A program made the position numbers and the translations under genes. Of a DNA stretch of 64,000 nucleotides, positions 29,578-51,461 are shown piece after piece; the first letter of the stretch is position 1, and the number at the start of each line of letters is the position of its first letter. The DNA comes from Anaerolineales bacterium (GTDB lineage: Bacteria > Chloroflexota > Anaerolineae > Anaerolineales > RBG-16-64-43): positions 101-64,100 of the forward strand of contig JAFGCU010000020.1 in the NCBI GenBank assembly GCA_016932475.1, in the 5' to 3' direction. The notes below the pieces were generated by a model. It saw only the letters and a list, made by a program, of their open reading frames with translations. It did no database searches and was not told where the DNA came from.

Positions 29578-31173
29578 ATGATCCCCCCCCGTCCCGCGGC
29601 AACGCTTTCCATCACCCGCTCCGCGTTCGTCGTCATGATCGGCCTGGTACTGTCCCAGGTGGCCGGTCTCCTGAAGAACGTTGTGGTCGCGCAGGCGTTC
29701 GGAACCGGCGCCGGGTATGACGCATTCATCGCCGGAAACCGCCTGCCGGAGTTCCTGTTCAACCTGATCGCCGGAGGCGCGCTGGCTTCGGCGTTCATCC
29801 CGACCTATACCGCCTTCCTGGTGGAGGAAAAAAGAAAAGAAGCCGACCGGCTTGCCTCGGCCGTCGGGAGTTGGCTGCTTATTCTTCTGGCGGCGGGCTC
29901 CGTGCTGTGCGCGGTGCTGGCGCCTCAGCTTGTGAAGCACATCATCGCCCCCGGGTTCACGGATCCGCAGCAGATAGCGACTACCGTTGCGCTGCTGCGC
30001 ATCCTGCTCCTGTGCCCGACTATCTTCGGGTTGAGCGGGCTGATGATGGGGATCCTCAACGCCCACCACCGCTTCTTTTTTTCGGCGCTGGCGCCGATGT
30101 TTTATTCGTCGGGATGGATCGCGGGCGTCCTGTTATTGGCGCCGTCAATGGGAATTTTCGGTCTGGCTTGGGGTGTGGTTGCCGGCGCGGTGATGCATTT
30201 CGCCGTGCAGCTTCCGGCGCTTTTTTCCCTCCGCTCCAGGCTGCGGTTCATGCTGGACGCGGCAAATCCCGCGGTGCGCAACGTGTTCCGTTTGATGGCG
30301 CCGCGGGCGATCGGCCAATCCGCTATTCAATTGAATTTGCTTGTGAACACAATCCTCGCCTCCGGGCTGCAGGAAGGCAGCCAGTCCGCGATCGCCATCG
30401 CCTTTGCGCTGATGCTGATGCCGGAGATCGCCGTGGCGCAGGCGGCGGGCACGGCCGCCTTCCCGACGCTTTCCGCGCAGATCAGCCGCGGCCAGATCGA
30501 TCCGATGCGCGCGACCCTGGCGTCGGTGGTGCGGGGAATCTTTTTCCTGGCGCTTCCCTCCGCGGTCGGGCTGATCCTCCTGGGGCGGCCGATCGTGCGG
30601 ATGATTTTCGAACGCGGGGCGTTCGACGCGCATTCCACCGATATGGTCGTATGGGCTCTGGGGTTCTATTCGCTCGGTCTGGTCGCGCACTCCCTGCTGG
30701 AAGTCCTGGCGCGCGCCTTTTTTGCGATGCAGGACACGGTTACTCCCGTCTCGGTCAGCGTCGGCGGGATGCTGCTTAACGTCGTCCTGAGCCTTACGCT
30801 GGTCTCGGTTTTCCGCGGATGGGGGTGGATGCCGCACGGCGCGCTGGCGCTCTCCAATTCGCTCGCGACAATCGTCGAGATGACGGTGTTGATTGGTTTT
30901 CTGCGGCGGAAGATCCGCTGGGGCTTGGATCACGCCGGGTGGTTGAGCCTGGGCCGGACGATGCTTGCCTCAACGGTGATGGCCGCGGCGTTGTGGATTT
31001 GGTCCGGCGCCGCGGGATCCGCTTCCGTTTGGATTTTGGGACCGGGCGGCATCCTGCTCGGCACGGCCGTCTTTGGCGCGGCGAGCTTTGCGCTCGGGTC
31101 GACGGAAGCACATTCCATGGCCCGCGCGGTGCTTTCACGAATCCGGCCGGCGGCGAAGAAAACGCTTTCCTAG
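29578..31173 (+). CDS. murJ: lipid II flippase MurJ
   Basis: AFGTG..YDAF...RLPE, GALASAFIP, FERGAFD, RAFFAMQDTVTP. Confidence 0.92.
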   Translation: MIPPRPAATLSITRSAFVVMIGLVLSQVAGLLKNVVVAQAFGTGAGYDAFIAGNRLPEFLFNLIAGGALASAFIPTYTAFLVEEKRKEADRLASAVGSWLLILLAAGSVLCAVLAPQLVKHIIAPGFTDPQQIATTVALLRILLLCPTIFGLSGLMMGILNAHHRFFFSALAPMFYSSGWIAGVLLLAPSMGIFGLAWGVVAGAVMHFAVQLPALFSLRSRLRFMLDAANPAVRNVFRLMAPRAIGQSAIQLNLLVNTILASGLQEGSQSAIAIAFALMLMPEIAVAQAAGTAAFPTLSAQISRGQIDPMRATLASVVRGIFFLALPSAVGLILLGRPIVRMIFERGAFDAHSTDMVVWALGFYSLGLVAHSLLEVLARAFFAMQDTVTPVSVSVGGMLLNVVLSLTLVSVFRGWGWMPHGALALSNSLATIVEMTVLIGFLRRKIRWGLDHAGWLSLGRTMLASTVMAAALWIWSGAAGSASVWILGPGGILLGTAVFGAASFALGSTEAHSMARAVLSRIRPAAKKTLS

Positions 31174-31355
31174 GAATTATCATTCTGAAAGTGGAGGGGG
31201 GATTAAATTCCCCGTAAATCTCACCACAGTAGATTTCGTCATGCCCGCTAGAATCACACTCGCTTCACGATCATTCCCACTCAACAACCAGATGCGGGTG
31301 ATAATGACGACCACTTACCCTTCAAAGGCCGCGAAAGGGAAAAAGGGGGCTTCGT

Positions 31356-31802
31356 TCACCCGCCCGCGTTCAGCATGATAAGGATGGCGACGGAGACCCC
31401 GACGACTGTGCCGACAATCACCTCCCCCGGCGTGTGTCCGAGCAGTTCCTTCAGGTTCTCCTCCTTCAACGGATGCCCGTGCGAGAAATCATCGATAATC
31501 GCGTTGATCACCCGCGCGTGTTCCCCCGCCTGCCGCCGGACCCCGGCCGCGTCGTACAGCACCACCATGCAGATGGCGATGCTCAGGGCGAACTCCGGCG
31601 AATCGAACCCCAGTTGCATCCCCAGCGCGATGGTGGCGGCGGTGATGATCGCCGAATGGGTGGACGGCATGCCTCCGGCGCTGAAAAACCACGACCAGGC
31701 CCACTCCCGCGTGCGCAAGTACTGCACGAAGGGTTTGCTGAACTGGGCGATGAACCACGCGACTGTAACGCACCACAATACTCTGTTCTGAAATAATTCC
31801 AT
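31356..31802 (-). CDS. divergent PAP2 family protein (DUF212)
   Basis: GGMPSTHSA, YDAAGVRRQAG, LKELLGHTP. Confidence 0.92.
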   Translation of the reverse strand: MELFQNRVLWCVTVAWFIAQFSKPFVQYLRTREWAWSWFFSAGGMPSTHSAIITAATIALGMQLGFDSPEFALSIAICMVVLYDAAGVRRQAGEHARVINAIIDDFSHGHPLKEENLKELLGHTPGEVIVGTVVGVSVAILIMLNAGG

Positions 31803-31819
31803 GATCCGAAAATCTCCTG

Positions 31820-32056
31820 TCACTCGTCCTGCGGGGTTTCCGCGGGCGGGCTCCCGAGTTCCCGGATCCGGAGTTCCGCCTTATCGAGCAGCCCGGCGCA
31901 GGTTTTCGCCAGCCCCTGCCCGCGTTCATAGAGCGCCAGCGCCTCTTCCAGGGGAATTTCTCCGGATTCGAGTTTGGTCACAATATCCTGCAATTCGGCA
32001 AAAGCTTTTTCATAACTTGGTTCCGGATCGGCTGTTTTTTTCTGTCTCGGTGCCAT
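31820..32056 (-). CDS. xseB: exodeoxyribonuclease VII small subunit
   Basis: SYEKAFAELQDIVTKLESGEIPLEEALALYERG. Confidence 0.93.
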   Translation of the reverse strand: MAPRQKKTADPEPSYEKAFAELQDIVTKLESGEIPLEEALALYERGQGLAKTCAGLLDKAELRIRELGSPPAETPQDE

Positions 32057-32113
32057 TCCCCTCGCTCCTCTCCGATGATCCCGTCACGCATAAGGCCTGC
32101 GGATCGCGGCGGC

Positions 32114-33328
32114 TTATTCCGCGCCTTCCGAGCGGGCGGCCAGCTTCCCATCGGCGACCTGAACCCGCAACCGCGCGCCCGCCGGAGCCTGTCGCACCGA
32201 CCGCACCAGGCGGCCGTCGGCTTCACTCCAGATAAGCGCATACCCGCGTTCGAGCACCCGGGCCGGCCCCATCCCCGCGAGCACGCGGGCTAGCCCTTCC
32301 AACCGAGAACGATACAGGCAAAGCCGGCCGCGGATCGAGGCCTCCGCCCGGCGCGATACATCATCCGTTTGCTGGCGGATATTCTGCAGGCGGTGCAGCG
32401 GAGAAACCGCCTGCAACCGGATCGTCGCCGACCGCAGCCGATCCCGGCTTTCCCGCAGGACGGATTCCACGCGCAAATCCAATCGGCGGCGGTGAACGGT
32501 AATGTGCTGCCGCAATTCCTCGCGGTCCGGCGAGGCCATTTCCGCGGCCGCGGACGGAGTTGGGGCGCGCAGATCGGCGGCGAAATCCGCCAGTGTGAAA
32601 TCCGATTCGTGCCCGACTCCGGTGACGACCGGAGTTTGCATCGCGGCGACCGTCCGCACCACCAATTCGTCGTTGAACGCCCACAGATCCTCGATGCTTC
32701 CGCCGCCGCGCACCAGCAGGACGACGTCCGCCTTGGCCTGATCGGCCTTCCGCAGCGCGGCGCAGATGCGTTTCGGCGCATCCTCCCCCTGCACCGCGGT
32801 CGGCGCAAAGAGCACCTCCACGATCGGGAACCGGCGGGCCAGGACGGTTTGCACATCCTGCCAGGCCGCCCCGATCGGCGAGGTGACGACCGCGATCCGG
32901 CGCGGCCAACGCGGGAGCTCACATTTCCGAGCGGGATCGAACAAGCCTTCGGTCTCCAGCTTGGCCTTCAGGCGCAGGAATTCGGTGTACAGTTCGCCCT
33001 GCCCGGCCGGCTGGAGATAATCCGCGTACAGCTGGTACTGACCGCCCGCCTCATACAGGCTGATGCGGCCATGCGCCTCCACCGCCTCGCCTTCGCGCGG
33101 GATCGCTATCCGCACCGCGGCGTCTCGCCACATCACGCAGCGGATGGCGGCGCCGGCATCCTTGAGGGTGAAATACAGATGGCGGGAAGCCGGGCGCGAC
33201 AGGCCCGATACCTCTCCCCCGATCCACACATCCTGCAGGACCGGATCGCTCTCGAGCGTAATCCGGGCCAATCGATTGATTTCGGTGACCGTCAGGCAGT
33301 TCGAATGAAAGAGGGGAAGTTGCTGCAT
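32114..33328 (-). CDS. xseA: exodeoxyribonuclease VII large subunit
   Basis: HLYFTLKD, RGGGSIEDLWAFN, GHESDFTLADFAADLRAPTPSAAAE. Confidence 0.95.
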   Translation of the reverse strand: MQQLPLFHSNCLTVTEINRLARITLESDPVLQDVWIGGEVSGLSRPASRHLYFTLKDAGAAIRCVMWRDAAVRIAIPREGEAVEAHGRISLYEAGGQYQLYADYLQPAGQGELYTEFLRLKAKLETEGLFDPARKCELPRWPRRIAVVTSPIGAAWQDVQTVLARRFPIVEVLFAPTAVQGEDAPKRICAALRKADQAKADVVLLVRGGGSIEDLWAFNDELVVRTVAAMQTPVVTGVGHESDFTLADFAADLRAPTPSAAAEMASPDREELRQHITVHRRRLDLRVESVLRESRDRLRSATIRLQAVSPLHRLQNIRQQTDDVSRRAEASIRGRLCLYRSRLEGLARVLAGMGPARVLERGYALIWSEADGRLVRSVRQAPAGARLRVQVADGKLAARSEGAE

Positions 33329-33399
33329 GCGTCCGCCGTTCGTTCCGGAATTGTACCAAGGTTTATCCGCGCGCAAGCTCGTCCGCCTTAAGCCGGGAT

Positions 33400-33428
33400 A
33401 AAAAAAAGCCCCGCCGAAGGGCGGGGCT
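33400..33428 (-). terminator. rho-independent terminator of the ATP-grasp gene
   Basis: AGCCCCGCCCTTCGGCGGGGCT followed by a T run on the minus strand. Confidence 0.85.
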
Positions 33429-33445
33429 CCGAGCTGTCGAAGATG

Positions 33446-34489
33446 TCAGGCCATTACCATCTCGCGTTCGGGGATCTGGGCCGGGACGGCGTAGCGTGCC
33501 GACGCCAGTTCAAGGATGTGCGCGATCGTCTGGCCGTAATCGTAACCGGCGGCGCGGGCCGAGCGGGCGAAACCGCCTTCCATGGTGATATCCGGGTTGG
33601 AATTCACGTCGACGACGTAGGGGATGCCGTCCCGCACGCGCAGATCCACGCGGCCGTAATCCCTCACACGCAACGAGCGCTGGGTCCGGCGGCAGACGTT
33701 TTCGATCCGGCGGCGCAGTTCGTCCTCCACCGGCGCGGGGCACCGCACCGAGGTGAGCAGGTACGCTTCCGACGCCGGATCCCATTTGGCGTCGTAGGAA
33801 CACAACCGGTCGTGATAATCCGGGAAGACGGAATAATCAATTAGCGACAGGGGCAGCACATCCAGCCGTTCATTGCCCCACAACGAGACGTTGTATTCGG
33901 GTCCGTCGATGAAATCTTCGACGAGGGCCTTGCAGTGGTACGTATCCAGCACGAATTCCACGCGCTTGCGCAGTTCGTCCGAGTTATCGACGACGGAGTC
34001 GCGGGTGATCCCCAAGGAGCAGTGTTCGGTGGCGGGTTTCACCAGCGCCGGGAAGCGGACCCATCCGTTGCGCGCCGGGCGCGAATACACGGCCGCCTGC
34101 GGCGTGGGAATGCGGTGCCGCCGGAGTATTTCCTTGGTGGCCACCTTGTCCTCGGTGATATTCAGGCACCACGCGTCCGATCCGGTGTACATGAAGCCCA
34201 GCCGTTCGAGGATCGGCGGAATCGCATCGTACGCGTTGGGTTCGCCGTCCAATCCTTCACACCAGTTGAAGATGATGCATTCCTTGGGATCAAAACCGCG
34301 CAGTGCGCCTTCGATATCACGCCGAACGGGGATCGAAGTGACTTCCATGCCCAGCGATGTCAGCCCGTATTTCATCCGGGTCACCGCCTGTTCGGCAGCT
34401 TCGATGTCTGCCGAAGTCCAATCGCTCATCACATTGTGAAGGATCAAGACCGAGTACGGATTATAAATTTCTTTTGCGTTTCGTCTCAT
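33446..34489 (-). CDS. Ddl-like ATP-grasp ligase (non-canonical)
   Basis: FNWCEG, YTGS, DKVATK, LVKP, LVEDFIDG, YGRVDLR, DVNSNPD; lacks the Ddl GGxSxE and LHG motifs. Confidence 0.88.
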   Translation of the reverse strand: MRRNAKEIYNPYSVLILHNVMSDWTSADIEAAEQAVTRMKYGLTSLGMEVTSIPVRRDIEGALRGFDPKECIIFNWCEGLDGEPNAYDAIPPILERLGFMYTGSDAWCLNITEDKVATKEILRRHRIPTPQAAVYSRPARNGWVRFPALVKPATEHCSLGITRDSVVDNSDELRKRVEFVLDTYHCKALVEDFIDGPEYNVSLWGNERLDVLPLSLIDYSVFPDYHDRLCSYDAKWDPASEAYLLTSVRCPAPVEDELRRRIENVCRRTQRSLRVRDYGRVDLRVRDGIPYVVDVNSNPDITMEGGFARSARAAGYDYGQTIAHILELASARYAVPAQIPEREMVMA

Positions 34490-34706
34490 GTCTCTCCTGT
34501 TTTTTTTCCGCCGATGCGGATCAACGTTCTCCTAAATCAATTTTTATTCTACATTACAAAACCGAGAAGTCAATGGGTCGAATCTTAAATTTCCTTTTCG
34601 ACCTCTTTAACATTCGCGCGTCTCCCGGAAGCATTTTTGCACCTTCGCGATCAAATTAATTTATTTTCAAAAATATTTTTGTGTGTGTTGCTTCACAATA
34701 TTTTTT

Positions 34707-34937
34707 CTTTACGTCATGGCGTCTTTGCGTTTTGTGTTTACTATCTTAACGCAAAGGTGCAAAGATGCGGAGACGCAAAAAACCAATACCCGGGAATATC
34801 AATGCTATTATGGAAATATTTGCATGATTGGTTTAATTCCAATATTGTGATTTTTATTTTGCGTCTTTGCGCCGTTGCGTCTTTAGGTTGAGAAGTTAAT
34901 ACCTTAACGCAAGTCGCTAAGGCGCAGAGGCGCAAAG
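34707..34937. repeat. four alternating-orientation blocks of 8-bp-periodic GCAAAGAC-like repeats in an AT-rich spacer
   Basis: Blocks at 34707-34732 (rev), 34748-34779 (fwd), 34859-34884 (rev), 34906-34937 (fwd). Confidence 0.65.
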
Positions 34938-34988
34938 CAGTTCAAATTTATATATTTTGTGATGTTTGGGAAAGACCAATTTTTGGAA

Positions 34989-35486
34989 TTACGGATTGGA
35001 ATTGTAATATTTTACGAAAACCACCATATCCTCGCCGGGTTTGTAGTAATCCCGGATGCGGGCGGAGAGCTCACAGCCCATTCGCTCATAAAATTTCGAC
35101 GCCGGCATGTATTCCCTGCCGCCGCTTGTCCAGATCATCATCAGCCGGCCCTTCCGGTTCCGGATTTCCGCATCCATCGCCGCAAACAAGGCCCGCCCCA
35201 CCCCTCTGCCCTGCCCATCCGGATCGGTGCAGATCCAATATAAATCGTACGCTCCCTGCGCGAACGGGGTCGGCCCGTAACAGGCAAACCCCACCACCCG
35301 CTCCCCGGCCCGGGCCGAAAACCACTCATACCCGGAATCGGGCGATTGCAGATGGGTGTCGAATAATTCGAAGATCGAATCTTTTTCCTCCCGGGTGAAG
35401 ACCCCCGCCCGCCGCGCGATCTCCCCGATCGCCGCGCGGTCTTCCGGTCGGCTTGCGTCTATTTGAATTCGAGTTTCGGATTTCAT
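34989..35486 (-). CDS. GNAT N-acetyltransferase
   Basis: GFACYGPTP, YDLYWI, QGRGVGRAL acetyl-CoA motif, FYERMG. Confidence 0.9.
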   Translation of the reverse strand: MKSETRIQIDASRPEDRAAIGEIARRAGVFTREEKDSIFELFDTHLQSPDSGYEWFSARAGERVVGFACYGPTPFAQGAYDLYWICTDPDGQGRGVGRALFAAMDAEIRNRKGRLMMIWTSGGREYMPASKFYERMGCELSARIRDYYKPGEDMVVFVKYYNSNP

Positions 35487-35562
35487 GGGTCGAATGGGTT
35501 CCCCGATTTTCCAAAGCGGCTTTCCAACCGGGCGCCAGGCCGCATCCGCGCCGTGCCCCCGG

Positions 35563-36801
35563 TCACGATCCGGCGGGAACAGCCTTCCCGGCCGGGACGT
35601 CTTCCGCGTCCCCGCTGTCCGGCAGCAATCCGTACCGTCTGGCGCCGGCTTCCAGAACGGATTGAATCAACCGGGCATAACTCCAGCCTTCCGACTGCGC
35701 GCAAATGGTCAGGTCGCTGATCGGGGTCAGGCCGGGAAGCGAATTGATCTCGATGATGTACGGCTGCAGGTTTTCACCGCTGTGGAGCCGGAAATCCACC
35801 CGCGCAAAATCAAGCGTCTGGGTCACCCGGAACGTCTCAAGGGTCAGCCGGCGCACTTCGGCGGCGATCTTCTCCGGGATGGGCGCCGGGCAGAAATACG
35901 GATACTCCTCGAGCGACAGGGCCTTCACCGCATAGGAATAGTAGGGGTCCATGCCCGGTATCCGCGCATGATCCACTTCCGAAATGGGGAAGATGTGGAT
36001 ATTGTTCCAGTCCACTCCCCCGCCCGGCCCGGGGATCAGCCCCCGCAGATCCGGCACCGGCTGCCCGGATTCCATCGCGGTCAGGTTCCCCACCAGACCG
36101 CAGGTAATGTCGCGGCCCGGGATGTACTCCTCCACGAGCGCGGATTCGCAGTATTCCTTTAATATGTATTCCACCTTGGCGCGCAGCTGATCCTCGGATC
36201 GCACCAGGGATTTGGAGTCGATCCCGATCCCGGTTCCTTCGCGATTCGGCTTCACAAACAGGGGAAAATGCAGTCGCGGATCCAAGGGAAGATCGGGATG
36301 CGTGAATTCCTGGAAACGGGGGGTGGGCAGGCCGTACGCCATGAGGATCCGTTTCGTCGCGGCTTTGTCCAGGGTGTTGGCGAGGCAGGTTACCTTTCCG
36401 CCGGTATAGGGAATCCCCATCATTTCCAGCAGCGCCGGGACTTGGGCCTCGCGGGCGTCTCCCCGGTAGCCTTCACAGGTGTTGAAGCAGATATCGACCT
36501 TCAAGCGCTTCAACCGGCGGAACAGGTCCGGATTTCCGTCGATCCCGATGACGTGGTGGCCGGCGGCGCGCAAAGCGGCGGCATACGCGGCAATGTTGGA
36601 TTCGCTGTCGAGTTCGGCGAATGCGTCCGCCGGATGCGCTCCGTCGGCGGGCGCGTGTTTCTTTAAATTATGAAGCACCGCCACGCGCAGGCGGCTTTTT
36701 CTCAACCCGTTCTTTTTCTGGGGGATGGCGGCGGCGGAGGACGCGGCAGGCGGTTCTCCGTTTATCACGGCGGTTTTTTCCTGGGGAGAAGTATTCGACA
36801 A
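35563..36801 (-). CDS. Ddl-like ATP-grasp ligase (non-canonical)
   Basis: FNTCEG, REAQVPALLE, IPYTG, FVKPNREGTGIGI, EEYIPG, ARVDFR, EINSLPG; TTG start uncertain. Confidence 0.9.
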   Translation of the reverse strand: MSNTSPQEKTAVINGEPPAASSAAAIPQKKNGLRKSRLRVAVLHNLKKHAPADGAHPADAFAELDSESNIAAYAAALRAAGHHVIGIDGNPDLFRRLKRLKVDICFNTCEGYRGDAREAQVPALLEMMGIPYTGGKVTCLANTLDKAATKRILMAYGLPTPRFQEFTHPDLPLDPRLHFPLFVKPNREGTGIGIDSKSLVRSEDQLRAKVEYILKEYCESALVEEYIPGRDITCGLVGNLTAMESGQPVPDLRGLIPGPGGGVDWNNIHIFPISEVDHARIPGMDPYYSYAVKALSLEEYPYFCPAPIPEKIAAEVRRLTLETFRVTQTLDFARVDFRLHSGENLQPYIIEINSLPGLTPISDLTICAQSEGWSYARLIQSVLEAGARRYGLLPDSGDAEDVPAGKAVPAGS

Positions 36802-36842
36802 GGATAGATCCTTGGAAGGCGGGAATCCGGCCGTGTGCGGGT

Positions 36843-38225
36843 TTATTTCTCTTTTCGCGGACCGGTCGGATCAGCCGGATGGCTTCCCCCCGAAGCCGAA
36901 CTCGTGCCGATCCCGCGCGGATTCCATTTATTCGAATCCCGGTTCAACCGGTGTTCGACGCCGCCCCGGGCGTGCATCTTCGCCCAATCGATCGGTTCGA
37001 TCGCCAGCTCGTCGCCGTCCAGCAGGCCGGAAATGCCCGACTGCCCCGGTTCCGCGCGCTTGCGCTTGCATTCCGCGCATTCGGCCGGATCGTGCGCGGA
37101 ATAGGCCGTCGGTTCTTCGTAACTCGAGATGTAGCCTTCGAAATTCCGCAGGGCGACGCGGTGATCCGACATGCTCAGCAGGTAATTCGGCCCGAGCGGG
37201 ATTTTTCCGCCGCCGCCGGGCGCATCGACGACATAGGTGGGAACCGCGAAGCCGGAAGTGTGTCCGCGCAAGCCCTCGATGATCTCAATCCCCTTCGAAA
37301 CCGGCGTCCGGAAATGCCCCGCGCCCTCGACCAGGTCGCATTGGTATAGGTAATACGGGCGGACGCGGATCCGCACCAGGTCCTGCACCAGCCGGCGCTG
37401 GATATGCACGCAATCGTTCACTCCCGCCAGCAGGACCGACTGGTTTCCGAGCGGCACTCCCGCGCGGGTGAGTTTATCCGCGGCGGCCGCGAGTTCCGGC
37501 GTGATTTCGTTCGGATGGTTGACGTGAATGTTAAACCAGATGGGATGGTACCGCCCGAGCATGGCGCACAGGTCGTCGTCCACTCGCATAGGCATGAACA
37601 CCGGCACGCGCGACCCGATCCGGATGATCTCCACGTGGGAAATCTCCCGCAGGCTCGCGATCAGGTTTTCCAGAATCTTCGGCGCAAGCGTCAGCGGATC
37701 CCCGCCCGAGAGCAGCACGTCGCGGATCTGCGGTGTGGCGCGGATGTAATCCAGCTGTTCTTCGTATTCACTCGAGGAGAATTGCGCCGAGGGATCCCCG
37801 ACGATCCGCGAGCGGGTGCAATAGCGGCAGTAGGACGCGCACTGGGTCGTGACCAGCATCAGCACCCGGTCCGGGTAGCGGTGCACCAGCCCCGGCACGG
37901 GGGAATGCCGGTCCTCGGCAAGGGAATCCTCCATCATCGCCGTGAAGGGCACGAGCTCCGCCGCAGTGGGGATCACCTGGCGGCGGATGGGGTCGGCCGG
38001 GTCTTCCGGGCGGATGAGGGAGGCGAAGTACGGGGTGACGTCGACGCGGAACAGATCGCCCGCGGCAAGCGCGGCGCGTTCGCTTTCGGTGAGCGGGAAC
38101 ACCCGCTCCAACTCATCCGCCTTGTTCAAGCGGTGGCTGAGCTGCCAGTGCCAATCGTTCCACTGCGCATCCGGGACGTCCCGGAAAACGGGCGCGCGGC
38201 GCGGGCCTCCCGGTGGATTGGTCAT
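36843..38225 (-). CDS. kamA: lysine 2,3-aminomutase (radical SAM, PLP)
   Basis: CASYCRYC, HRYPDR, LSGGDPL, YQCD, VVDAPGGGGK, C-terminal Cys cluster. Confidence 0.93.
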   Translation of the reverse strand: MTNPPGGPRRAPVFRDVPDAQWNDWHWQLSHRLNKADELERVFPLTESERAALAAGDLFRVDVTPYFASLIRPEDPADPIRRQVIPTAAELVPFTAMMEDSLAEDRHSPVPGLVHRYPDRVLMLVTTQCASYCRYCTRSRIVGDPSAQFSSSEYEEQLDYIRATPQIRDVLLSGGDPLTLAPKILENLIASLREISHVEIIRIGSRVPVFMPMRVDDDLCAMLGRYHPIWFNIHVNHPNEITPELAAAADKLTRAGVPLGNQSVLLAGVNDCVHIQRRLVQDLVRIRVRPYYLYQCDLVEGAGHFRTPVSKGIEIIEGLRGHTSGFAVPTYVVDAPGGGGKIPLGPNYLLSMSDHRVALRNFEGYISSYEEPTAYSAHDPAECAECKRKRAEPGQSGISGLLDGDELAIEPIDWAKMHARGGVEHRLNRDSNKWNPRGIGTSSASGGSHPADPTGPRKEK

Positions 38226-38264
38226 TCGCCCCTCCCGGTGCAGCGGGTGGCCGCGCGCGGGTGC

Positions 38265-38432
38265 TTATTTCGATGAAACATTCGCCCCTGGGTTGAGTTT
38301 AAGAATCTTCGCGGCGATCGCGGCGCGCGCCTTCGAATCCTTGGCATCCGCCAGGCGCTTCTTCAGGAATTCCATTTTCGACCGTTTCTGCCGGCGGCGC
38401 GAAATTTCCCGATCCCGTTCTGTTTTCGGCAT
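38265..38432 (-). CDS. small basic protein (DUF6800-like), 55 aa
   Basis: MPKTERDREISRRRQKRSKMEFLKKRL...KILKLNP; GGAGG RBS. Confidence 0.7.
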   Translation of the reverse strand: MPKTERDREISRRRQKRSKMEFLKKRLADAKDSKARAAIAAKILKLNPGANVSSK

Positions 38433-38754
38433 AGCATCCTCCGAACTGCTTTCCCAAGATGCGGAAAAGTATATCCCCTTTCGCGGCGATCGAACAGAGG
38501 ACATTCCGCTGACCGCAACGGTTCCTCCTCGCGCGCGAAGGCGGCGGCGCGGAAGGGATCCTCATCCGAGGATGCCTTCTCCGGAAAACGAAGTTCCTTG
38601 CGCGCCCCGCGCCGTCGCGGAAAGACTCCCGCCCTGCTGGAAAAATCGGGCTGGTATAATCCCCGCAGGATATTGTTCCGCATGTCGATCGCCGCGGTTG
38701 GAAAACAATCCGCGCGAATCGGGATCCTCCCGGGACGGGATATCGGCCATCGCC

Positions 38755-39078
38755 ATGGATGTAAAACAGCTCACCGAGGCTATGCACCGGTTCGTCCGGT
38801 CCAAAGGCTGGTACGCCGCAGATTCCCCGCGTCCGCAAACCCCGCGCAACCTCGCGATTTCCCTCTCCCTCGAAGCCGCGGAAGTCCTGGAACATTTCCA
38901 ATGGGACGACCGCGCGGATCCGGATATAAAGGAAGAGCTCGCCGACACGGCGCTGTACCTGCTTCAGCTCTCCTCCGTCCTCGGGATCGACCTGGAACAG
39001 GCTGTCCTCGAAAAACTGGAAACCAACGCCAAACGATCCTGGCCTGCCCCTTCCCCGGCGCCGAAGGACCGCAAATGA
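38755..39078 (+). CDS. MazG-like nucleotide pyrophosphohydrolase
   Basis: NLAISLSLEAAEVLEHFQW, EELAD. Confidence 0.9.
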   Translation: MDVKQLTEAMHRFVRSKGWYAADSPRPQTPRNLAISLSLEAAEVLEHFQWDDRADPDIKEELADTALYLLQLSSVLGIDLEQAVLEKLETNAKRSWPAPSPAPKDRK

Positions 39079-39752
39079 ACCCCCCGGCCGCCCGGACCAT
39101 TCTTTGCGTCAGCGACGAAATATCCGAGCGCCTGAATTCCTGCCAGGCCCCGCAGAAAACAGGAAAAGTCGATTTCATCATCAGCTGCGGGGACCTGCCC
39201 TTCGATTATCTGGAATTCCTGATGACCTGCTTCAACACCCCGATGTATTACGTCCTCGGAAATCACGACGGCGAGGGCTTTTTTCGCGAATGCGGACAGG
39301 TGGATTACCGGCCTGACGCGGGCGACAGCATCGACGGGAGCGCGTTGCAAGCGAAGGGAATTTTAATTGCCGGCCTGGGCGGGAGCATCCGCTACGGATT
39401 TACGCTGAAGAACCAGTACACCGAGGCGGAAATGTGGCGGCGGGTGCTGAGGCTCACCCCGCAGCTGCTTTCCAACCAGGTGCGTTACGGCCGCCGGCTG
39501 GATATTTTCGTGGCGCATTCGCCCGCCCGCGGCGTGCACGAGGGGGAAGACTCGGCCCACAAGGGATACGCCGCCTTCCGCTGGCTGTTGGAGTGGGCTA
39601 AACCGCGCTGGATGCTGCACGGCCACTCGCAATTCATCCGCCCGCCGAAATCGCTTCAGACCCGGGTCGGTTCAACCGATGTGATTTACATCCCCCCGTA
39701 CCGCCTTCTGCAGTGGGACGTCGCGGCGGATGCCCACCCGCCCCCCGGTTAA
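39075..39752 (+). CDS. metallophosphoesterase
   Basis: VSD, CGDL, GNHD, AHSP, HGH. Confidence 0.88.
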   Translation: MNPPAARTILCVSDEISERLNSCQAPQKTGKVDFIISCGDLPFDYLEFLMTCFNTPMYYVLGNHDGEGFFRECGQVDYRPDAGDSIDGSALQAKGILIAGLGGSIRYGFTLKNQYTEAEMWRRVLRLTPQLLSNQVRYGRRLDIFVAHSPARGVHEGEDSAHKGYAAFRWLLEWAKPRWMLHGHSQFIRPPKSLQTRVGSTDVIYIPPYRLLQWDVAADAHPPPG

Positions 39753-39770
39753 CCCGAAGGGAATCCGCGC

Positions 39771-40349
39771 ATGCCAGTCTCCCGTAACCGGTTTGTTGTT
39801 GGAGTGTTTGGGGCGGCATTCCTCGAAGAAAGCCATCCGGCATTCCAGACGGCATTCACACTCGGCTCGGAAATCGCACGCCGCGGGTGGGTGACGGCGA
39901 GCGGCGGCTACGGCGGGACGATGGCGGCGGCCAGCCGCGGGGCGGCCGAGGCGGGCGGGCACACCATCGGCGTGACGTGCGGGACGCTCCACCGCGCCGG
40001 GCGCCGCGCCAATCCCTGGATCCGGGAAGAAATCCACCGCCCCACCGTGCGCGCAAGGCTGACGACGCTGGTGGGCTTGGCGGATGCATGTGTGGCGCTC
40101 GATGGGGGTATCGGCACGCTGACGGAGATCGCATTCGGCGCGGTGCAGATTCAAACCGGCGAGTTATCCCCGCGCCCGCTGGTGCTGATGGGGAAGGTTT
40201 GGGATGAAACGTTTCAGACGTTTTTCCGATCCGCGGGGCCGCATATAAAGGCAGCCGACCGGGCGTTGTTCTCATTTGTTTCTTCTCCGACGGAAGCGGT
40301 TGCAATCATTCAAAAGCATTTCGATCGACTGGCCGGCCCAAGCCATTAG
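39771..40349 (+). CDS. LOG family protein
   Basis: SGGYGGTMAA, GGIGTLTE. Confidence 0.85.
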   Translation: MPVSRNRFVVGVFGAAFLEESHPAFQTAFTLGSEIARRGWVTASGGYGGTMAAASRGAAEAGGHTIGVTCGTLHRAGRRANPWIREEIHRPTVRARLTTLVGLADACVALDGGIGTLTEIAFGAVQIQTGELSPRPLVLMGKVWDETFQTFFRSAGPHIKAADRALFSFVSSPTEAVAIIQKHFDRLAGPSH

Positions 40350-40572
40350 TTCCTATTCTCCAGTTCTGGTTTCCACTTTCCGGTATTCGCAGCCGTCCGG
40401 CCCAACCCGCTCCCATTCCCTGCCTCCTTCCCATTTCTCTTTCCTGCCCCGCCCCCCGATCTTCCCCTCGGAAAAACACCGAGGTTCAGACGGGGAGAGG
40501 AGGTACGGTTGGCGTCCATCATCGAACCGGTTATCATTGCGGGGTCAATCCATCCCCGAAGGAGTCACACCG

Positions 40573-42009
40573 ATGCCCGAAGATCGCCTGCCCTCGCGCG
40601 CCGAGGATTTTTCCGAATGGTACAACCAGCTTGTGCTGCGGGCCGAACTGGCCGACTACGCCCCGGTCCGCGGCTGCATGGTGGTGCGCCCGTACGGCTG
40701 GGCGCTGTGGGAAGCCATCACCCGCGAACTGGACCGCCGCTTCAAGGCCACCGGCCACGTCAACGCCGGCTTTCCGATGTTTATCCCAAAATCGTTCCTG
40801 GAAAAAGAGAAGGAACATGTGGAGGGGTTCTCCCCGGAACTGGCGGTGGTGACAATCGGCGGCGGGGAGGAACTCGAGGAACCGCTGGCCGTCCGGCCGA
40901 CCTCGGAGACGATCATCGGCCACATGTATGCCAAGTGGGTTAAATCCTATCGCGACCTGCCGATCCTGATCAACCTGTGGAACAGCGTCGTGCGCTGGGA
41001 AAAACGCACCAAGCTCTTCCTGCGCACGACCGAATTCTACTGGCAGGAGGGGCATACCGCGCACGCCACGGCCCAGGAAGCGGACGAGGAAACCCTGCGC
41101 ATGCTGGATATTTACGCCGACTTCGCCGAGAACGAAGCCGCCGTCCCGGTCATCCGCGGCCGCAAGAGCGACAGCGAGAAGTTTGCCGGCGCCGCCTGCA
41201 CCTACGCGATCGAAGCCATGATGGGCGACGGCAAGGCGCTCCAATCCGCCACTTCGCACAACCTCGGGCAGAACTTCGCGAAAGCATTTAACATCCAGTA
41301 CCTGGACGAGCAGAACAGCCAGCAATATGCCTGGACCACATCCTGGGGGCTCTCGACCCGCTTCATCGGCGCGATCATCATGGTTCACGGCGACGACACG
41401 GGCCTGATCCTTCCTCCGCGCCTGGCGCCGACCCAGGCGGTCATCGTGCCGATCTGGCGCAAAGAGGAGGAAAAGTCGGCGGTCACGGAGAAGGCGCTGC
41501 AACTGGAGCAGGAACTCCGGCAGACGTACCGCGTGCGGGTCGACCTGCGCGACGGGCTGACGCCCGGTTATAAATTCAACGACTGGGAGATGCGCGGCGT
41601 ACCGGTCCGCATCGAAATCGGCCCGCGCGATCTTGCCGCGGGAACGGTTGCGCTGGCGCGGCGCGACCGGCCGGGCCGCGAGGGCAAGACCACCGCAGCC
41701 TGGGATGGGCTGCCGCAATCGGTCGGCGCCCTGCTGGACGAGATTCAGCTGGCGTTGCTCGCCCGGGCGAAGAAGTTCCGCGACGATCACACCCAGGACC
41801 CGGCCGATTACGACGGTTTCCGCGGCGCCGTCGAGCAGGGGTTCGCCGTATCCTGGTGGTGCGGCGACGCGGCCTGCGAGGAAAAGGTCAAGGAAGACAC
41901 CAAAGCCACCATCCGCTGCATCCCCCTGGAGCAACCGGACGGAAAAGGGCGCTGCCTCGTCTGCGGCAAAGATGCTTCCCGGAAAGCCGTCTTCGGGAAA
42001 GCGTATTAA
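40573..42009 (+). CDS. proS: proline--tRNA ligase (archaeal/eukaryotic-like type)
   Basis: RPTSET, FLRTTEFYWQEGH, TSWGLSTR, C-terminal Zn domain. Confidence 0.96.
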   Translation: MPEDRLPSRAEDFSEWYNQLVLRAELADYAPVRGCMVVRPYGWALWEAITRELDRRFKATGHVNAGFPMFIPKSFLEKEKEHVEGFSPELAVVTIGGGEELEEPLAVRPTSETIIGHMYAKWVKSYRDLPILINLWNSVVRWEKRTKLFLRTTEFYWQEGHTAHATAQEADEETLRMLDIYADFAENEAAVPVIRGRKSDSEKFAGAACTYAIEAMMGDGKALQSATSHNLGQNFAKAFNIQYLDEQNSQQYAWTTSWGLSTRFIGAIIMVHGDDTGLILPPRLAPTQAVIVPIWRKEEEKSAVTEKALQLEQELRQTYRVRVDLRDGLTPGYKFNDWEMRGVPVRIEIGPRDLAAGTVALARRDRPGREGKTTAAWDGLPQSVGALLDEIQLALLARAKKFRDDHTQDPADYDGFRGAVEQGFAVSWWCGDAACEEKVKEDTKATIRCIPLEQPDGKGRCLVCGKDASRKAVFGKAY

Positions 42010-47674: not shown

Positions 47675-48472
47675 ATGCCCGATCCGCTGCGGAAAATCGA
47701 AATCCAGCTGGAGAATCTGTTCGAAAAAAGGACCGGGATACTTTCCGCGCACATCCTGCATGCCGGGAAGATCCTTGCGCGTCTGATCGAGGCGCTTGAA
47801 GAGCGCGCCGAACAGGGGCCCGGCGGCCGCTGGATTGCGCCGAATGCATACCGGCTGAAGCTCGGCAAGCGCATCTGGCAGACCGCCTCGGCCGTCCCGG
47901 ATCTGGCGGCGCTGCTCGGCTCCAAACTGGAGGAACATGTCACCCAGAGCGAGATGATCCTCCTCAACCCGATCCAAATCGAATTCACGTCCGACGACTC
48001 GCTGCGCGAGGAGAGCATCCGCGTATTCGCGGAAATCGTGCGGACCGGCGGCGAGCACACGGACGCCTTCCCGGCTTCCGACGCCGCGCCGATCGTCCTG
48101 CCGCACGGCGCGTTCCTGATCCTCAACGGCAGCCGGCATTACCCGCTCAACCGGCCGGTGATCAACATCGGCCGCCAGCTGGATAACCATCTGGTGATCG
48201 ACGACGCGCTGGTGAGCCGCCGACATGCGCAGTTGCGGGCGCGCGAGGGACAGTACCTTCTGACCGACCTCGGCTCCAAGCACGGCATGAAGGTCAACAA
48301 CTCGATCGTCCGCGAATGGGTCCTCCAACCCGGCGACGTGTTCCGCCTGGGCAACACCGAACTCATTTACGGCGACGACCGCGAGGAGAGCATCACCCAG
48401 CCGATCCCCGCCCACCCCGCCCCCGACTCCCCCGCGGATACCACCCCCCGACCGGAGAAACCCGCGGCATGA
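47675..48472 (+). CDS. FhaA-like protein (DUF3662 plus FHA)
   Basis: IAPNAY; FHA motifs IGR, VSRRHA, DLGSKHG. Confidence 0.85.
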   Translation: MPDPLRKIEIQLENLFEKRTGILSAHILHAGKILARLIEALEERAEQGPGGRWIAPNAYRLKLGKRIWQTASAVPDLAALLGSKLEEHVTQSEMILLNPIQIEFTSDDSLREESIRVFAEIVRTGGEHTDAFPASDAAPIVLPHGAFLILNGSRHYPLNRPVINIGRQLDNHLVIDDALVSRRHAQLRAREGQYLLTDLGSKHGMKVNNSIVREWVLQPGDVFRLGNTELIYGDDREESITQPIPAHPAPDSPADTTPRPEKPAA

Positions 48473-48951
48473 GCGTCTCGGTCCTGATGCTCGCCGCCCG
48501 CATCGCCCTGGCCGCCTGCCTGTATGCCTTCCTCGCGCTTGTCCTGGTGACCTTGTGGCGAGACCTGCGCGCGGCGGCCGGGGTGCAGCCCGCCGGATCG
48601 GCCCACTTCAGCCTGCGCCGCCTGCGGGAGGACGGCACGACGGACCGCGACTATCCGCTGCAGAAAGAATCCTGTTTCATCGGCCGCTCCCCGAGCCTCG
48701 AGGTATCTCTGGCGGATGAAACCGTTTCCGTCGTGCATGCACGCTTGTGGAAGGAGGCCGGCCGATGGTGGTTGGAGGATCTCGACTCGCGCAACGGCAC
48801 CCTGCTCAACCAAATTCCCGTCTCGAAAAAAACCGTCCTGTGCGCGGGCGATCGGATCCGCACCGGACGCATTCTGCTGGAATTCCGGATTGAGGATTCC
48901 TCACAACCCCCGGCGAAAATACAACCCCGCGCAACGGACACCCCCGCATGA
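48469..48951 (+). CDS. FhaB-like membrane-anchored FHA protein
   Basis: N-terminal TM LYAFL...LWRDL; IGR, VSVVHA, DLDSRNGT. Confidence 0.88.
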   Translation: MSVSVLMLAARIALAACLYAFLALVLVTLWRDLRAAAGVQPAGSAHFSLRRLREDGTTDRDYPLQKESCFIGRSPSLEVSLADETVSVVHARLWKEAGRWWLEDLDSRNGTLLNQIPVSKKTVLCAGDRIRTGRILLEFRIEDSSQPPAKIQPRATDTPA

Positions 48952-51461
48952 CCAACCCCTCCCGGCGGGAAGCGGCGCTCCTCGGGCTGGCGCTTCTCTT
49001 CCAAGCCTTCGGCGCGGCGGCGCTGCTGCTCTCGTCTTCGGTCCGGGGCGGGGCATGGACGGTTAACCCGCCGTACTTGTCGGCCATCCCTGCCTTGTGT
49101 GTCTGGGGTCTGGTCGCGTGGATCCTTCACCGCGGGCTCGACCGCGCCCTTCCCAACCGCGATCCGTTGCTGCTGCCGGCGGCCATGTTCCTGTGCGGAT
49201 GGGGATTGCAGATTCTGGTCCGGTTATCGCCGGAAACCGCGATGCGCCAGACCCTGTGGCTGTTTCTGTTGGGCGGATTGCTGATGGTCTTCCTGCGGTT
49301 GCCGCCCGATCTCGAATGGCTGCGCAAGTACCGCTACCTCTGGCTGGGCTCGGCGCTCCTGGCGGTGGCCGCCACGCTGTTCATCGGAGTCGGCGCGGGA
49401 GAGGATTCGCCGCGGTTATGGCTCGGGTTGGACGGCATTTTCTTCCAACCCTCGGAATTCCTGCGCTGGATCTTCCCGGTGTTCGCCGCGTTCACGCTCG
49501 CGCCGCGCCGGAGCACCGCCCGCGGCCCCGACGCCAAGGATTCGCTTCCCGTGCTGTTGTTCGGCGCGGCCGGAATCCTGCTGCATATCCTCCAGCAGGA
49601 TCTTGGCGCCGCCATGCTGCTTCTCGCCGCCTTGGTCCTGGCTCTGTATCTCGCCTATCGCAAAACGGCCATCCTTCTGCTTGGAGCCGCCGCCGCGCTC
49701 ATGATCCTGGGCGGCGGGTACGCGCTGAGCGGGACTATCCGCGACCGGATCGCGACCTGGTGGAATCCCTGGCTGGATCCGAGCAACACCTCGTATCAGG
49801 TGGTGCAGTCGCTGATCTCGGTTGCGGCCGGCGGCCTGATCGGCCGCGGACCCGGCCTGGGCGCCCCAGGGCTTGTGCCGGTGGCTTATTCGGATTTTAT
49901 TTTTTCCGCGGTCTGCGAGGAATACGGAGTGCTGGGCGCCGTCGGCTGCCTGACCATCATGGCCGTGCTGGTATTGCGCGGACTGCGGATTGCGATACGC
50001 TCCGCGGATCCCGCCGCCCGCCTGATCGCCGCAAACCTCAGCGCTCTGCTGGGCTGCCAATCGATCCTGATCATCGGAGGCGGATTGCGCCTGCTGCCGC
50101 TGACCGGTGTCACCCTGCCCTGGATGAGTTACGGCGGCTCCTCGCTGCTGGGAAGCATGATCATGCTTGGCTTCCTGCTGATGCTTTCGGACAAGGCTCC
50201 GGCCGCGGCGGCGGAAGCCCGGCCGGACCGGCCGGTCCGGGTCCTTTCGGCCCTCTTCCTGCTTGCCTTCGCCGCGGCGGGTGTGAGCGCGGGTTGGTGG
50301 GGCATATACCGGTCGCCCGTGCTGCGGGTCCGCACCGATAATTACCGGCGAGTCCTGCACGACCTCCGCGCGCGGCGCGGAGACCTGTTCGACCGCACCG
50401 GTCTGCCGCTGGCCGTCACCGCCGGCACGGCGGGCGCCTACACGCGCGAGTATCCCGATCCCGCGTCCGCGCCGGTGATCGGGTACACCACAGCCTTCTA
50501 CGGACAGGGCGGAATGGAAGCCGCGCTGGATCCGTGGCTGCGCGGAGAAGCCGGCCGGGATTTGTTCGACCAATGGTGGTCGGAAACTGTCCTTGGCATC
50601 CCCCTGGAAGGCAAGGATGCCTGGCTGACGATCGACCGCTCCATCCAGGAGCGCGGCAGCGCCGGGATGAAGGATCTCTCCGGCGCGGTCGTGGCGCTGC
50701 GGGCCGGGAGCGGGGAAATCCTCGCGCTCATCTCCCAACCGACGTTTGATCCGGCGACGCTGCAAACGGATTACGAATTGCTGTCCCGCAATCCCGCGGC
50801 TCCGCTCCTCAACCGGGCCACCCAGGGATTGTATGGACCGGGGCGGATGTTATATCCGTTCTTCGCCGCGGAAGCGATCGACCGGAACCTGCCGGATGCG
50901 GGTGCCGATCTCTGCGCGGCGCCGTACACGGAATGGATTTTGGAGAATCCGGAATTCGCTCAACAGGTCCTTACCCGGTTCCGGTTCGATCAGGATCCGG
51001 CGATGGACCTGCCGACGGCGAACGTCGCGGAGCTTGTGTTTCCCGCCGGCGAGGCATCCATCCGGCGCGAATGGGACGGGCAGGGACGCGTTCTGGTCAG
51101 CCCGATGCAACTGGCGCTCGCCTTTTCGTCGATCGCCGCCGGCGGCATGGCGCCCGCCCCGCGGCTGGTGTACCGCCTGGAGACGGAAGCCGGCTGGGTA
51201 ACACCCGCCGCGGCGAGCCATCCGGTGGCGATGATACCCGCCGTGACAGCCGCGCGCCTGCGGGAGATCCTGGCCGGCGGCGACGGGATGGCCGAGTGGA
51301 CCGGCTGCGGCTTTTACTCCGGCGGAATCTCGTGGTATGCCGGATTTGAGACTACGGGCGACGATCCGGTCGTGGTGGTGGTCGCGCTCGAAGGCGAACC
51401 CTCCGACGCCGCCGCGATCGGCCGGATGATCCTCGCGCTTGCGGCGGTAGTGGGAAAATAG
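48948..51461 (+). CDS. SEDS (RodA/FtsW)-PbpA fusion with degenerate transpeptidase domain
   Basis: QPSEF, YQVVQS, SDFIFS, PLTGVTLPWMSYGGSS; then RGDLFDR, REYP, NRATQGLYGPGRMLY, SPMQLA. Confidence 0.88.
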   Translation: MTNPSRREAALLGLALLFQAFGAAALLLSSSVRGGAWTVNPPYLSAIPALCVWGLVAWILHRGLDRALPNRDPLLLPAAMFLCGWGLQILVRLSPETAMRQTLWLFLLGGLLMVFLRLPPDLEWLRKYRYLWLGSALLAVAATLFIGVGAGEDSPRLWLGLDGIFFQPSEFLRWIFPVFAAFTLAPRRSTARGPDAKDSLPVLLFGAAGILLHILQQDLGAAMLLLAALVLALYLAYRKTAILLLGAAAALMILGGGYALSGTIRDRIATWWNPWLDPSNTSYQVVQSLISVAAGGLIGRGPGLGAPGLVPVAYSDFIFSAVCEEYGVLGAVGCLTIMAVLVLRGLRIAIRSADPAARLIAANLSALLGCQSILIIGGGLRLLPLTGVTLPWMSYGGSSLLGSMIMLGFLLMLSDKAPAAAAEARPDRPVRVLSALFLLAFAAAGVSAGWWGIYRSPVLRVRTDNYRRVLHDLRARRGDLFDRTGLPLAVTAGTAGAYTREYPDPASAPVIGYTTAFYGQGGMEAALDPWLRGEAGRDLFDQWWSETVLGIPLEGKDAWLTIDRSIQERGSAGMKDLSGAVVALRAGSGEILALISQPTFDPATLQTDYELLSRNPAAPLLNRATQGLYGPGRMLYPFFAAEAIDRNLPDAGADLCAAPYTEWILENPEFAQQVLTRFRFDQDPAMDLPTANVAELVFPAGEASIRREWDGQGRVLVSPMQLALAFSSIAAGGMAPAPRLVYRLETEAGWVTPAAASHPVAMIPAVTAARLREILAGGDGMAEWTGCGFYSGGISWYAGFETTGDDPVVVVVALEGEPSDAAAIGRMILALAAVVGK

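Follow-up and report, generated by a model that had tools for sequence, protein, structure and literature searches.

What becomes of beta-lysine in a bacterium whose gene for making it is followed by ligases resembling D-alanine-D-alanine ligase (Ddl)? The question is raised by a four-gene cassette in a 64,000-nucleotide stretch of an Anaerolineales genome (GCA_016932475.1, contig JAFGCU010000020.1, positions 101 to 64,100; hereafter the window), in which a lysine 2,3-aminomutase gene (kamA) is followed by genes for a Ddl-like ATP-grasp ligase (AG1), a small GNAT acetyltransferase and a second Ddl-like ligase (AG2) (Table 1). To our knowledge, few fates of beta-lysine have been described and none involves ATP-grasp ligases. 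We propose, at about an even chance of being right, that the cassette encodes a pathway in which the Ddl-like ligases and the GNAT turn beta-lysine into an acetylated derivative, either an amide or a short peptide. An initial annotation of this DNA had suggested an uncharacterised route that ligates beta-lysine, and that suggestion gains support from two results reported below: the ligases are not Ddl enzymes, and their linkage to kamA and the GNAT gene is conserved.

The ligases were compared with the Ddl family by means of the NCBIfam cut-offs for Ddl and Van enzymes and, across 144 AG1- and AG2-type members, at positions numbered as in Escherichia coli DdlB. AG1, AG2 and a third paralogue encoded elsewhere in the genome (AG1', contig C87:17991-19220, L031:6992-8221; 41% identical to AG1) fell well under every Ddl and Van cut-off, with best Ddl scores of 164.8, 117.8 and 165.2, respectively, against 243 for NF002378. 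A canonical Ddl is encoded separately on contig C116 and scored 443.3 against a cut-off of 262. The ATP-grasp catalytic residues K144, E180, K215, R255, D257 and N272 were kept in 144 of 144 members. Positions E15, H63, Y216 and S281/L282 presumably bind D-Ala in DdlB, and here H63 was replaced by Glu in 142 of the 144 members and E15 by Asp in 117. L282 was Asp in all 78 AG1-type proteins and Gly in 64 of the 66 AG2-type proteins; Y216 was Val, Ala or Thr in the AG1 type and Trp in the AG2 type (64 of 66), whose signature further includes G149H, S150C, E270D and G276D. The AG1 of the window itself carries Asp at position 15, Glu at 63, Ala at 216 and Asp at 282, together with an omega-loop insert of about 30 amino acids, and both ligases of the window have Asp for E15 and CEG in place of the LHG of DdlB. 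The initial annotation had reported that both ligases lack the D-Ala-binding GGxSxE and LHG motifs and that the two differ at the C-terminal metal motif (EINSLPG in AG1 and DVNSNPD in AG2), and both observations hold. Judged from these alignments, the ligases look active, with substrate pockets that appear new and more acidic, and the acidic changes may fit a cationic or diamino substrate such as beta-lysine.

Phylogeny against canonical Ddl had been set in advance as a refuting test. After removal of five of 148 clustered locus proteins outside 300-480 amino acids, a tree of 148 sequences was built from the remaining 143, the three ligases of the window genome, its Ddl and E. coli DdlB. The AG1-type (78) and AG2-type (66) proteins formed two clades, supported at 0.80 and 0.999 (0.64 for their union), apart from the four Ddl sequences, which make a small outgroup. 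The ligases thus stand in clades of their own as well as under the Ddl cut-offs. A sequence search of solved structures returned only Ddl enzymes as relatives of AG1 and AG2 (E = 1e-26 and 1e-21), and the best solved folds for an AlphaFold model of AG2 (mean pLDDT 89.7) were likewise all Ddl, at 15-26% identity and TM 0.68-0.86. Scores, residues and tree show AG1 and AG2 to be intact putative ligases that are not Ddl. Public records nevertheless name such proteins 'D-alanine-D-alanine ligase' or 'hypothetical protein'; among 8000 candidates scored, 2469 proteins matched at E <= 1e-10, and a Protein Atlas look-up returned only 'Ddl family' clusters, from several phyla.

The aminomutase, encoded by the single KamA-family gene of the genome, scored 530.5 bits with TIGR03820 (lys_2_3_AblA), above its cut-off of 525.4, and under the cut-offs of the glutamate (430.5 versus 650) and arginine (390.8 versus 600) aminomutase models. 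KamA aligned over 406 residues with the solved Clostridium lysine 2,3-aminomutase 2A5H (E = 4.6e-156), and its CASYCRYC matches the CxxxCxxC cluster motif of that enzyme. Its YQCD and VVDAPGGGGK segments align with D293, D330 and K337 of 2A5H, all three kept; we take K337 to be the pyridoxal phosphate lysine and D293 and D330 to hold the epsilon-amino group of the lysine substrate. The earlier assignment of KamA to the lysine rather than the glutamate type is therefore upheld by both the models and the two acidic residues.

None of the established partners of beta-lysine was found beside this enzyme or elsewhere in the genome, the initial annotation having noted no kamDE, epmA or efp in the window. 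For AblB (TIGR03827, cut-off 205.1 bits) the best genome match scored 21 bits, on another contig, in a search in which control genomes were positive. No protein in the genome exceeded the EpmA cut-off (TIGR00462; best 237.9 versus 286.9), and the KamD domain had no match in the genome, in a weak search whose positive controls did not register. Translation factor EF-P (contig C77:18227-18775, L198:1501-2049) reads KPGRGN at its loop tip, with Arg at what we take to be the place where a lysine would be modified. Because of this Arg, the predicted EF-P sequence argues against beta-lysylation of a lysine there.

Conservation of the neighbourhood was followed at several depths. Among order-level relatives, AG1 was matched at 56% identity or more in 25 of 41 genomes. 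From species genomes 77 loci were returned, of which 73 were kept after removal of four outliers, two from Clostridia and two from Flavobacteriales. The Flavobacteriales loci encode true Ddl; the clostridial AG1 relatives (35-37% identity), which lie beside opine-dehydrogenase-like and B12-binding-domain genes, were set aside as a different system. In the family of the window the genes run kamA-AG1-GNAT-AG2 between syntenic flanks. In other Anaerolineales families, whose flanks differ, the order is kamA-AG1-AG1'-GNAT-AG2, so that the orthologue of AG1', which in the window genome stands alone among housekeeping genes on C87, lies there between AG1 and GNAT within the cassette. Those housekeeping surroundings were considered as a clue to AG1' function and were uninformative. 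In Thermoflexales, Roseilinea and related metagenome-assembled genomes (MAGs), the order is AG1-AGx-GNAT-AG2 without an adjacent kamA, AGx falling in the AG2 clade. In one further lineage (L092-L101), an AG1'-type gene stands alone beside permease-like and TrkA-like genes, with kamA adjacent in two loci.

Adjacency was counted only where a locus had sufficient flanking sequence. Of 62 such loci, 36 have kamA immediately 5' of AG1, AG1 always following kamA where the two are linked; of 52, 43 have GNAT downstream of AG1. Flanks on both sides were available for 47 loci: kamA and GNAT are present together in 25, GNAT only in 13, kamA only in 2 and neither in 7. Where the module was unlinked, each of the five genomes examined carries one AblA-type kamA elsewhere. 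Across an even sample of 251 Anaerolineae genomes, searched at E <= 1e-45 for the AG2-type ligase and E <= 1e-60 for kamA, the ligase was present in 88 and kamA in 147. kamA occurred in 86 of the 88 genomes with the ligase and in 61 of the 163 without it, figures that are descriptive only, since related genomes are not independent and co-occurrence overstates the support. In 44 of the 86 genomes, from 17 families, kamA lies within 6 kb of the AG2-type match.

Seeding with the GNAT alone gave 80 metagenome loci. A ligase is the immediate upstream neighbour at 43 of 48 and the immediate downstream one at 23 of 45; kamA is no more than 4.5 kb away at 17 of 23, and the shuffled order GNAT-kamA-AG1-AG2 was seen once. 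Ligase-GNAT fusion proteins were found in one Pirellulales MAG and in two database proteins. Given the two-gene variants (described below), the fusions and the loci lacking kamA, the ligase-GNAT pair is the minimal unit, to which kamA is attached tightly though not universally. The linkage of the ligases to kamA and GNAT, the other refuting test set beforehand, is thus conserved through 17 families, shuffled gene orders and fusions. These data confirm the cassette only for Chloroflexota, together with one module in Planctomycetota whose genome has a kamA homologue elsewhere.

How the proteins might act together can be sketched from their families. KamA would convert L-lysine to beta-lysine. 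AG1 and AG2, probably with the unlinked AG1', would form amide bonds by turning a carboxylate into an acyl phosphate and joining it to an amine, with beta-lysine as one of the substrates, and the small GNAT would put an acetyl group on a free amine. Such steps would lead to an N-acetylated amide or short peptide of beta-lysine, kept in the cytoplasm and most plausibly similar to a compatible solute. We infer that the ligases use beta-lysine, in what order the steps run, and what the product is and does. Window annotation found no transporter or exporter, regulator, mur, fem, flippase or other envelope gene and no amidotransferase in the cassette unit. The flanks are housekeeping genes: xseA, xseB and a DUF212 gene downstream, and divergent metallophosphoesterase and proS genes upstream. 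Because the unit has no exporter, regulator or envelope gene and lies in core-genome surroundings, a cytoplasmic primary metabolite fits better than an antibiotic.

Two known systems resemble parts of this scheme. PMC9049628 describes the AblA/AblB route to N-epsilon-acetyl-beta-lysine. Like that system, which occurs in methanogens and some bacteria (yodP-kamA in Bacillus), the cassette sets an AblA-type aminomutase beside a GNAT and would be expected to yield acetylated beta-lysine. It differs in that its GNAT has 165 amino acids and is no AblB, the cut-off of TIGR03827 being unreached, and in having two to three ATP-grasp ligases where AblAB has none. In Ngg, the other system, GNAT acetylation is coupled with ligation within the domain make-up of the protein. 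The Ngg/AsnO route leads to the osmolyte N-acetylglutaminylglutamine amide (NAGGN), a small acetylated peptide made by GNAT acetylation and ATP-dependent peptide bond formation (PMC8070244). Ligase-GNAT fusions exist in the cassette family too; the cassette unit, however, has an aminomutase and no AsnO-type amidotransferase. Among 17 plasmid records matched by a relative of the ligase-GNAT fusion, none carried an Ngg annotation, a comparison made by record labels, and the plasmid contexts of such relatives were uninformative. With the Ddl/Van family, finally, the ligases share the fold, as modelled for AG2, and the ATP-grasp catalytic residues; they differ in their scores, in the four replaced D-Ala-binding positions, in their separate clades and in the presence of a true Ddl elsewhere in the genome.

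The product may act in osmoprotection, a role suggested only by analogy with AblAB and NAGGN and by the TrkA-linked paralogue. A bolder version of the proposal, possible in our view and held tentatively, is that both ligase clades are new families using beta-lysine as acyl-phosphate donor and that, with the GNAT, they build a hitherto unknown class of N-acetylated beta-lysine peptides that would serve widely in Anaerolineae as a solute or protectant of the cytoplasm. If true, this would be a third metabolic fate for beta-lysine beside fermentation and the AblAB/EpmAB routes. Conservation across a large, mostly uncultured class speaks for a metabolite yet to be identified and for two branches of the D-alanine ligase family that await characterisation, so that naming the product would correct thousands of annotations and add a Chloroflexota pathway; the pathway is directly testable by heterologous expression. 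A full-text literature search found no description linking aminomutase, ATP-grasp and beta-lysine, although an earlier prediction in work on amidoligases or Ngg is possible. By their titles and abstract openings, papers on aminomutase and ATP-grasp were unrelated, and the matches listed for beta-lysine and ATP-grasp were reviews or papers on other natural products.

Several facts weigh against the proposed pathway. Gene neighbourhood and aligned residues are the grounds for its substrate assignment. At 13 of the 47 fully flanked loci the ligase-GNAT core has no kamA beside it, and two of the 88 genomes with an AG2-type ligase showed no kamA. A two-gene variant, in which ligase and GNAT genes overlap by 4 bp, is found in unrelated contexts, and a probable promoter of AG2's own means that its expression may be uncoupled from that of the other three genes. 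The osmolyte role is weakly backed, by an AG1'-type gene beside TrkA-like and permease genes in one lineage, and record titles of related MAGs name fen, groundwater and other non-marine sources.

The kamA-less cores, the coupled two-gene pairs and the fusions speak for a module that, like Ngg, joins ordinary amino acids into an acetylated di- or tripeptide, beta-lysine being non-obligate and kamA an add-on or the answer to a separate need; that Ngg both acetylates and ligates (PMC8070244) adds to its appeal. We regard this as unlikely, though worth keeping in view, given kamA in 86 of the 88 AG2-type genomes and in five of five with an unlinked module, its place directly before AG1 in 36 of 62 loci, and the searches for AblB, KamD and EpmA and the EF-P Arg, which revealed no other use of beta-lysine in the genome. 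Modification of the cell envelope, with beta-lysine or a short acetylated peptide added to peptidoglycan precursors or another wall polymer, is improbable. Some ATP-grasp ligases are known to attach side-chain residues to peptidoglycan precursors, and Ddl enzymes are the closest relatives of the cassette ligases by sequence and fold; the unit nevertheless lacks envelope genes, those for mur, fem and flippase functions included, and the cassette stays constant while its flanks vary between lineages.

Highly improbable, in our estimate, is modification of a protein or ribosomal peptide, whether by RimK/RimI-like tailing and acetylation, by beta-lysylation of EF-P or as a microviridin-like graspetide. 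Its attractions are that a microviridin gene layout likewise consists of two ATP-grasp ligases and a GNAT, and that the cassette GNAT has RimI as its best NCBIfam match, with a score of 44.7 bits (cut-off 86.4). Against it, no graspetide-type or RimK model exceeded its cut-off in the Pfam and NCBIfam scans, EF-P has Arg where a lysine would be modified, and the only short open reading frame (ORF) of the spacer before AG2 is broken in one of six relatives. Chance adjacency, or ligases that are spare D-Ala-D-Ala ligases, as the public names would have it, we consider close to negligible in view of the scores under every Ddl cut-off, the replaced D-Ala-binding residues, the canonical Ddl of the same genome and a linkage that 17 families keep, despite shuffled gene orders and alongside fusions. 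The proposed pathway from beta-lysine to an acetylated amide or short peptide is the reading that we favour.

Table 1 Features of the cassette, with coordinates given in the window.
Feature	Coordinates	Strand	Details
kamA/ablA-type L-lysine 2,3-aminomutase	36843..38225	minus	460 amino acids; PF12544 LAM_C 1.1e-34 and Radical_SAM; TIGR03820
AG1, Ddl-like ATP-grasp ligase	35563..36801	minus	412 amino acids; PF07478 (Dala_Dala_lig_C) 4.5e-31
Small GNAT acetyltransferase	34989..35486	minus	165 amino acids; Pfam Acetyltransf_7/_1
AT-rich spacer with CGCAAAG-type repeat copies	34490..34988	none	499 bp
Promoter-like site for AG2, TTGACT-16-TAGAAT	34546..34573	minus	promoter scan, sigma-70-like
AG2, second Ddl-like ATP-grasp ligase	33446..34489	minus	347 amino acids; PF07478 7.9e-24
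Intrinsic terminator ending the cassette	33405..33430	minus	11-bp stem (8 GC pairs), 4-nt loop, T run

The source assembly comprises 3.65 Mb in 129 contigs. ORF calls with Pfam and NCBIfam searches recovered all four of the co-oriented genes that the initial annotation had described, as well as the strong terminator that it had placed after them; its end coordinate of 38432, in contrast, lies about 200 bp past the kamA start and has been corrected. The genes are separated by 41 bp (kamA-AG1), 76 bp (AG1-GNAT) and 499 bp (GNAT-AG2). The spacer before AG2 stands out in composition (GC 0.54 in its 2-kb bin against about 0.63 for the window), and a repeat search found direct and inverted repeats inside it. 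Its final 150 bp or so 5' of AG2 are conserved across six of six aligned sequences of the genus and hold the promoter-like TTGACT-16-TAGAAT, a small hairpin and a ribosome-binding site, so AG2 probably has its own promoter. With a spacer and a sigma-70-like promoter ahead of AG2, transcription of the four genes is therefore probably split between two units. The initial annotation had mentioned neither this spacer and promoter nor AG1', nor that some lineages have the ligase-GNAT core with no kamA next to it.

Two other readings of the spacer were rejected. A small ORF, considered as a precursor peptide, has a stop at its fifth codon in one of the six genus relatives (L038), and the conserved DNA there holds the promoter. 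The CGCAAAG-type repeat, considered as a locus-specific operator, has 160 genomic matches on many contigs at two or fewer mismatches; we read it as a dispersed repeat and not as a signal specific to the locus. The repeat, built of CGCAAAG-type 8-mers, occurs at 34699-34940 of the window and in intergenic DNA genome-wide; its copies often form inverted pairs with a spacing of about 50 bp, and some lie at contig ends. An Rfam scan of positions 30000-42000 gave two matches, both far under their gathering scores, and no family at threshold in the spacer. In-frame TGA codons in the kamA matches of one genus proved to be read-through beyond the true stop, with no recoding.

The nearest solved relative of the GNAT is 2R7H (E = 1.2e-32), titled by its depositors 'putative D-alanine N-acetyltransferase'; the one paper found to mention this entry concerns an unrelated toxin. 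Some GNAT relatives (P0123 and P0125-P0128; 747-753 amino acids) are fused to a histone-deacetylase-like PF00850 domain, the two named sources being Rhodospirillales and Pseudaestuariivita. These fusions hint that the GNAT family may act on amine or polyamine-like substrates.

Further genes were noted around relatives of the cassette. A conserved protein of about 108 amino acids is encoded directly 5' of AG1 in 10 loci of the Thermoflexales/Roseilinea type (L075-L089, for example L076:7395-7721) and had no Pfam or NCBIfam match. In four of the five genomes with an unlinked module, kamA follows genes for a 238-amino-acid GNAT (no AblB by NCBIfam) and a DsbA-like thioredoxin (L111:6399-9567, L112-L114). 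In the lineage with the TrkA-linked AG1'-type gene, a link to potassium or osmotic control is possible; the order at L092:1767-15589 is two 700-amino-acid permease-like and two TrkA-domain genes, the AG1'-type ligase, a membrane protein, a 960-amino-acid PMT_2-like protein and a two-component system. Within the window, away from the cassette, an 837-amino-acid ORF on the plus strand (48948-51461) encodes an FtsW/RodA/SpoVE domain together with transpeptidase and penicillin-binding dimerisation domains and is preceded by the gene for an FHA/FhaA_N protein at 47675-48472.

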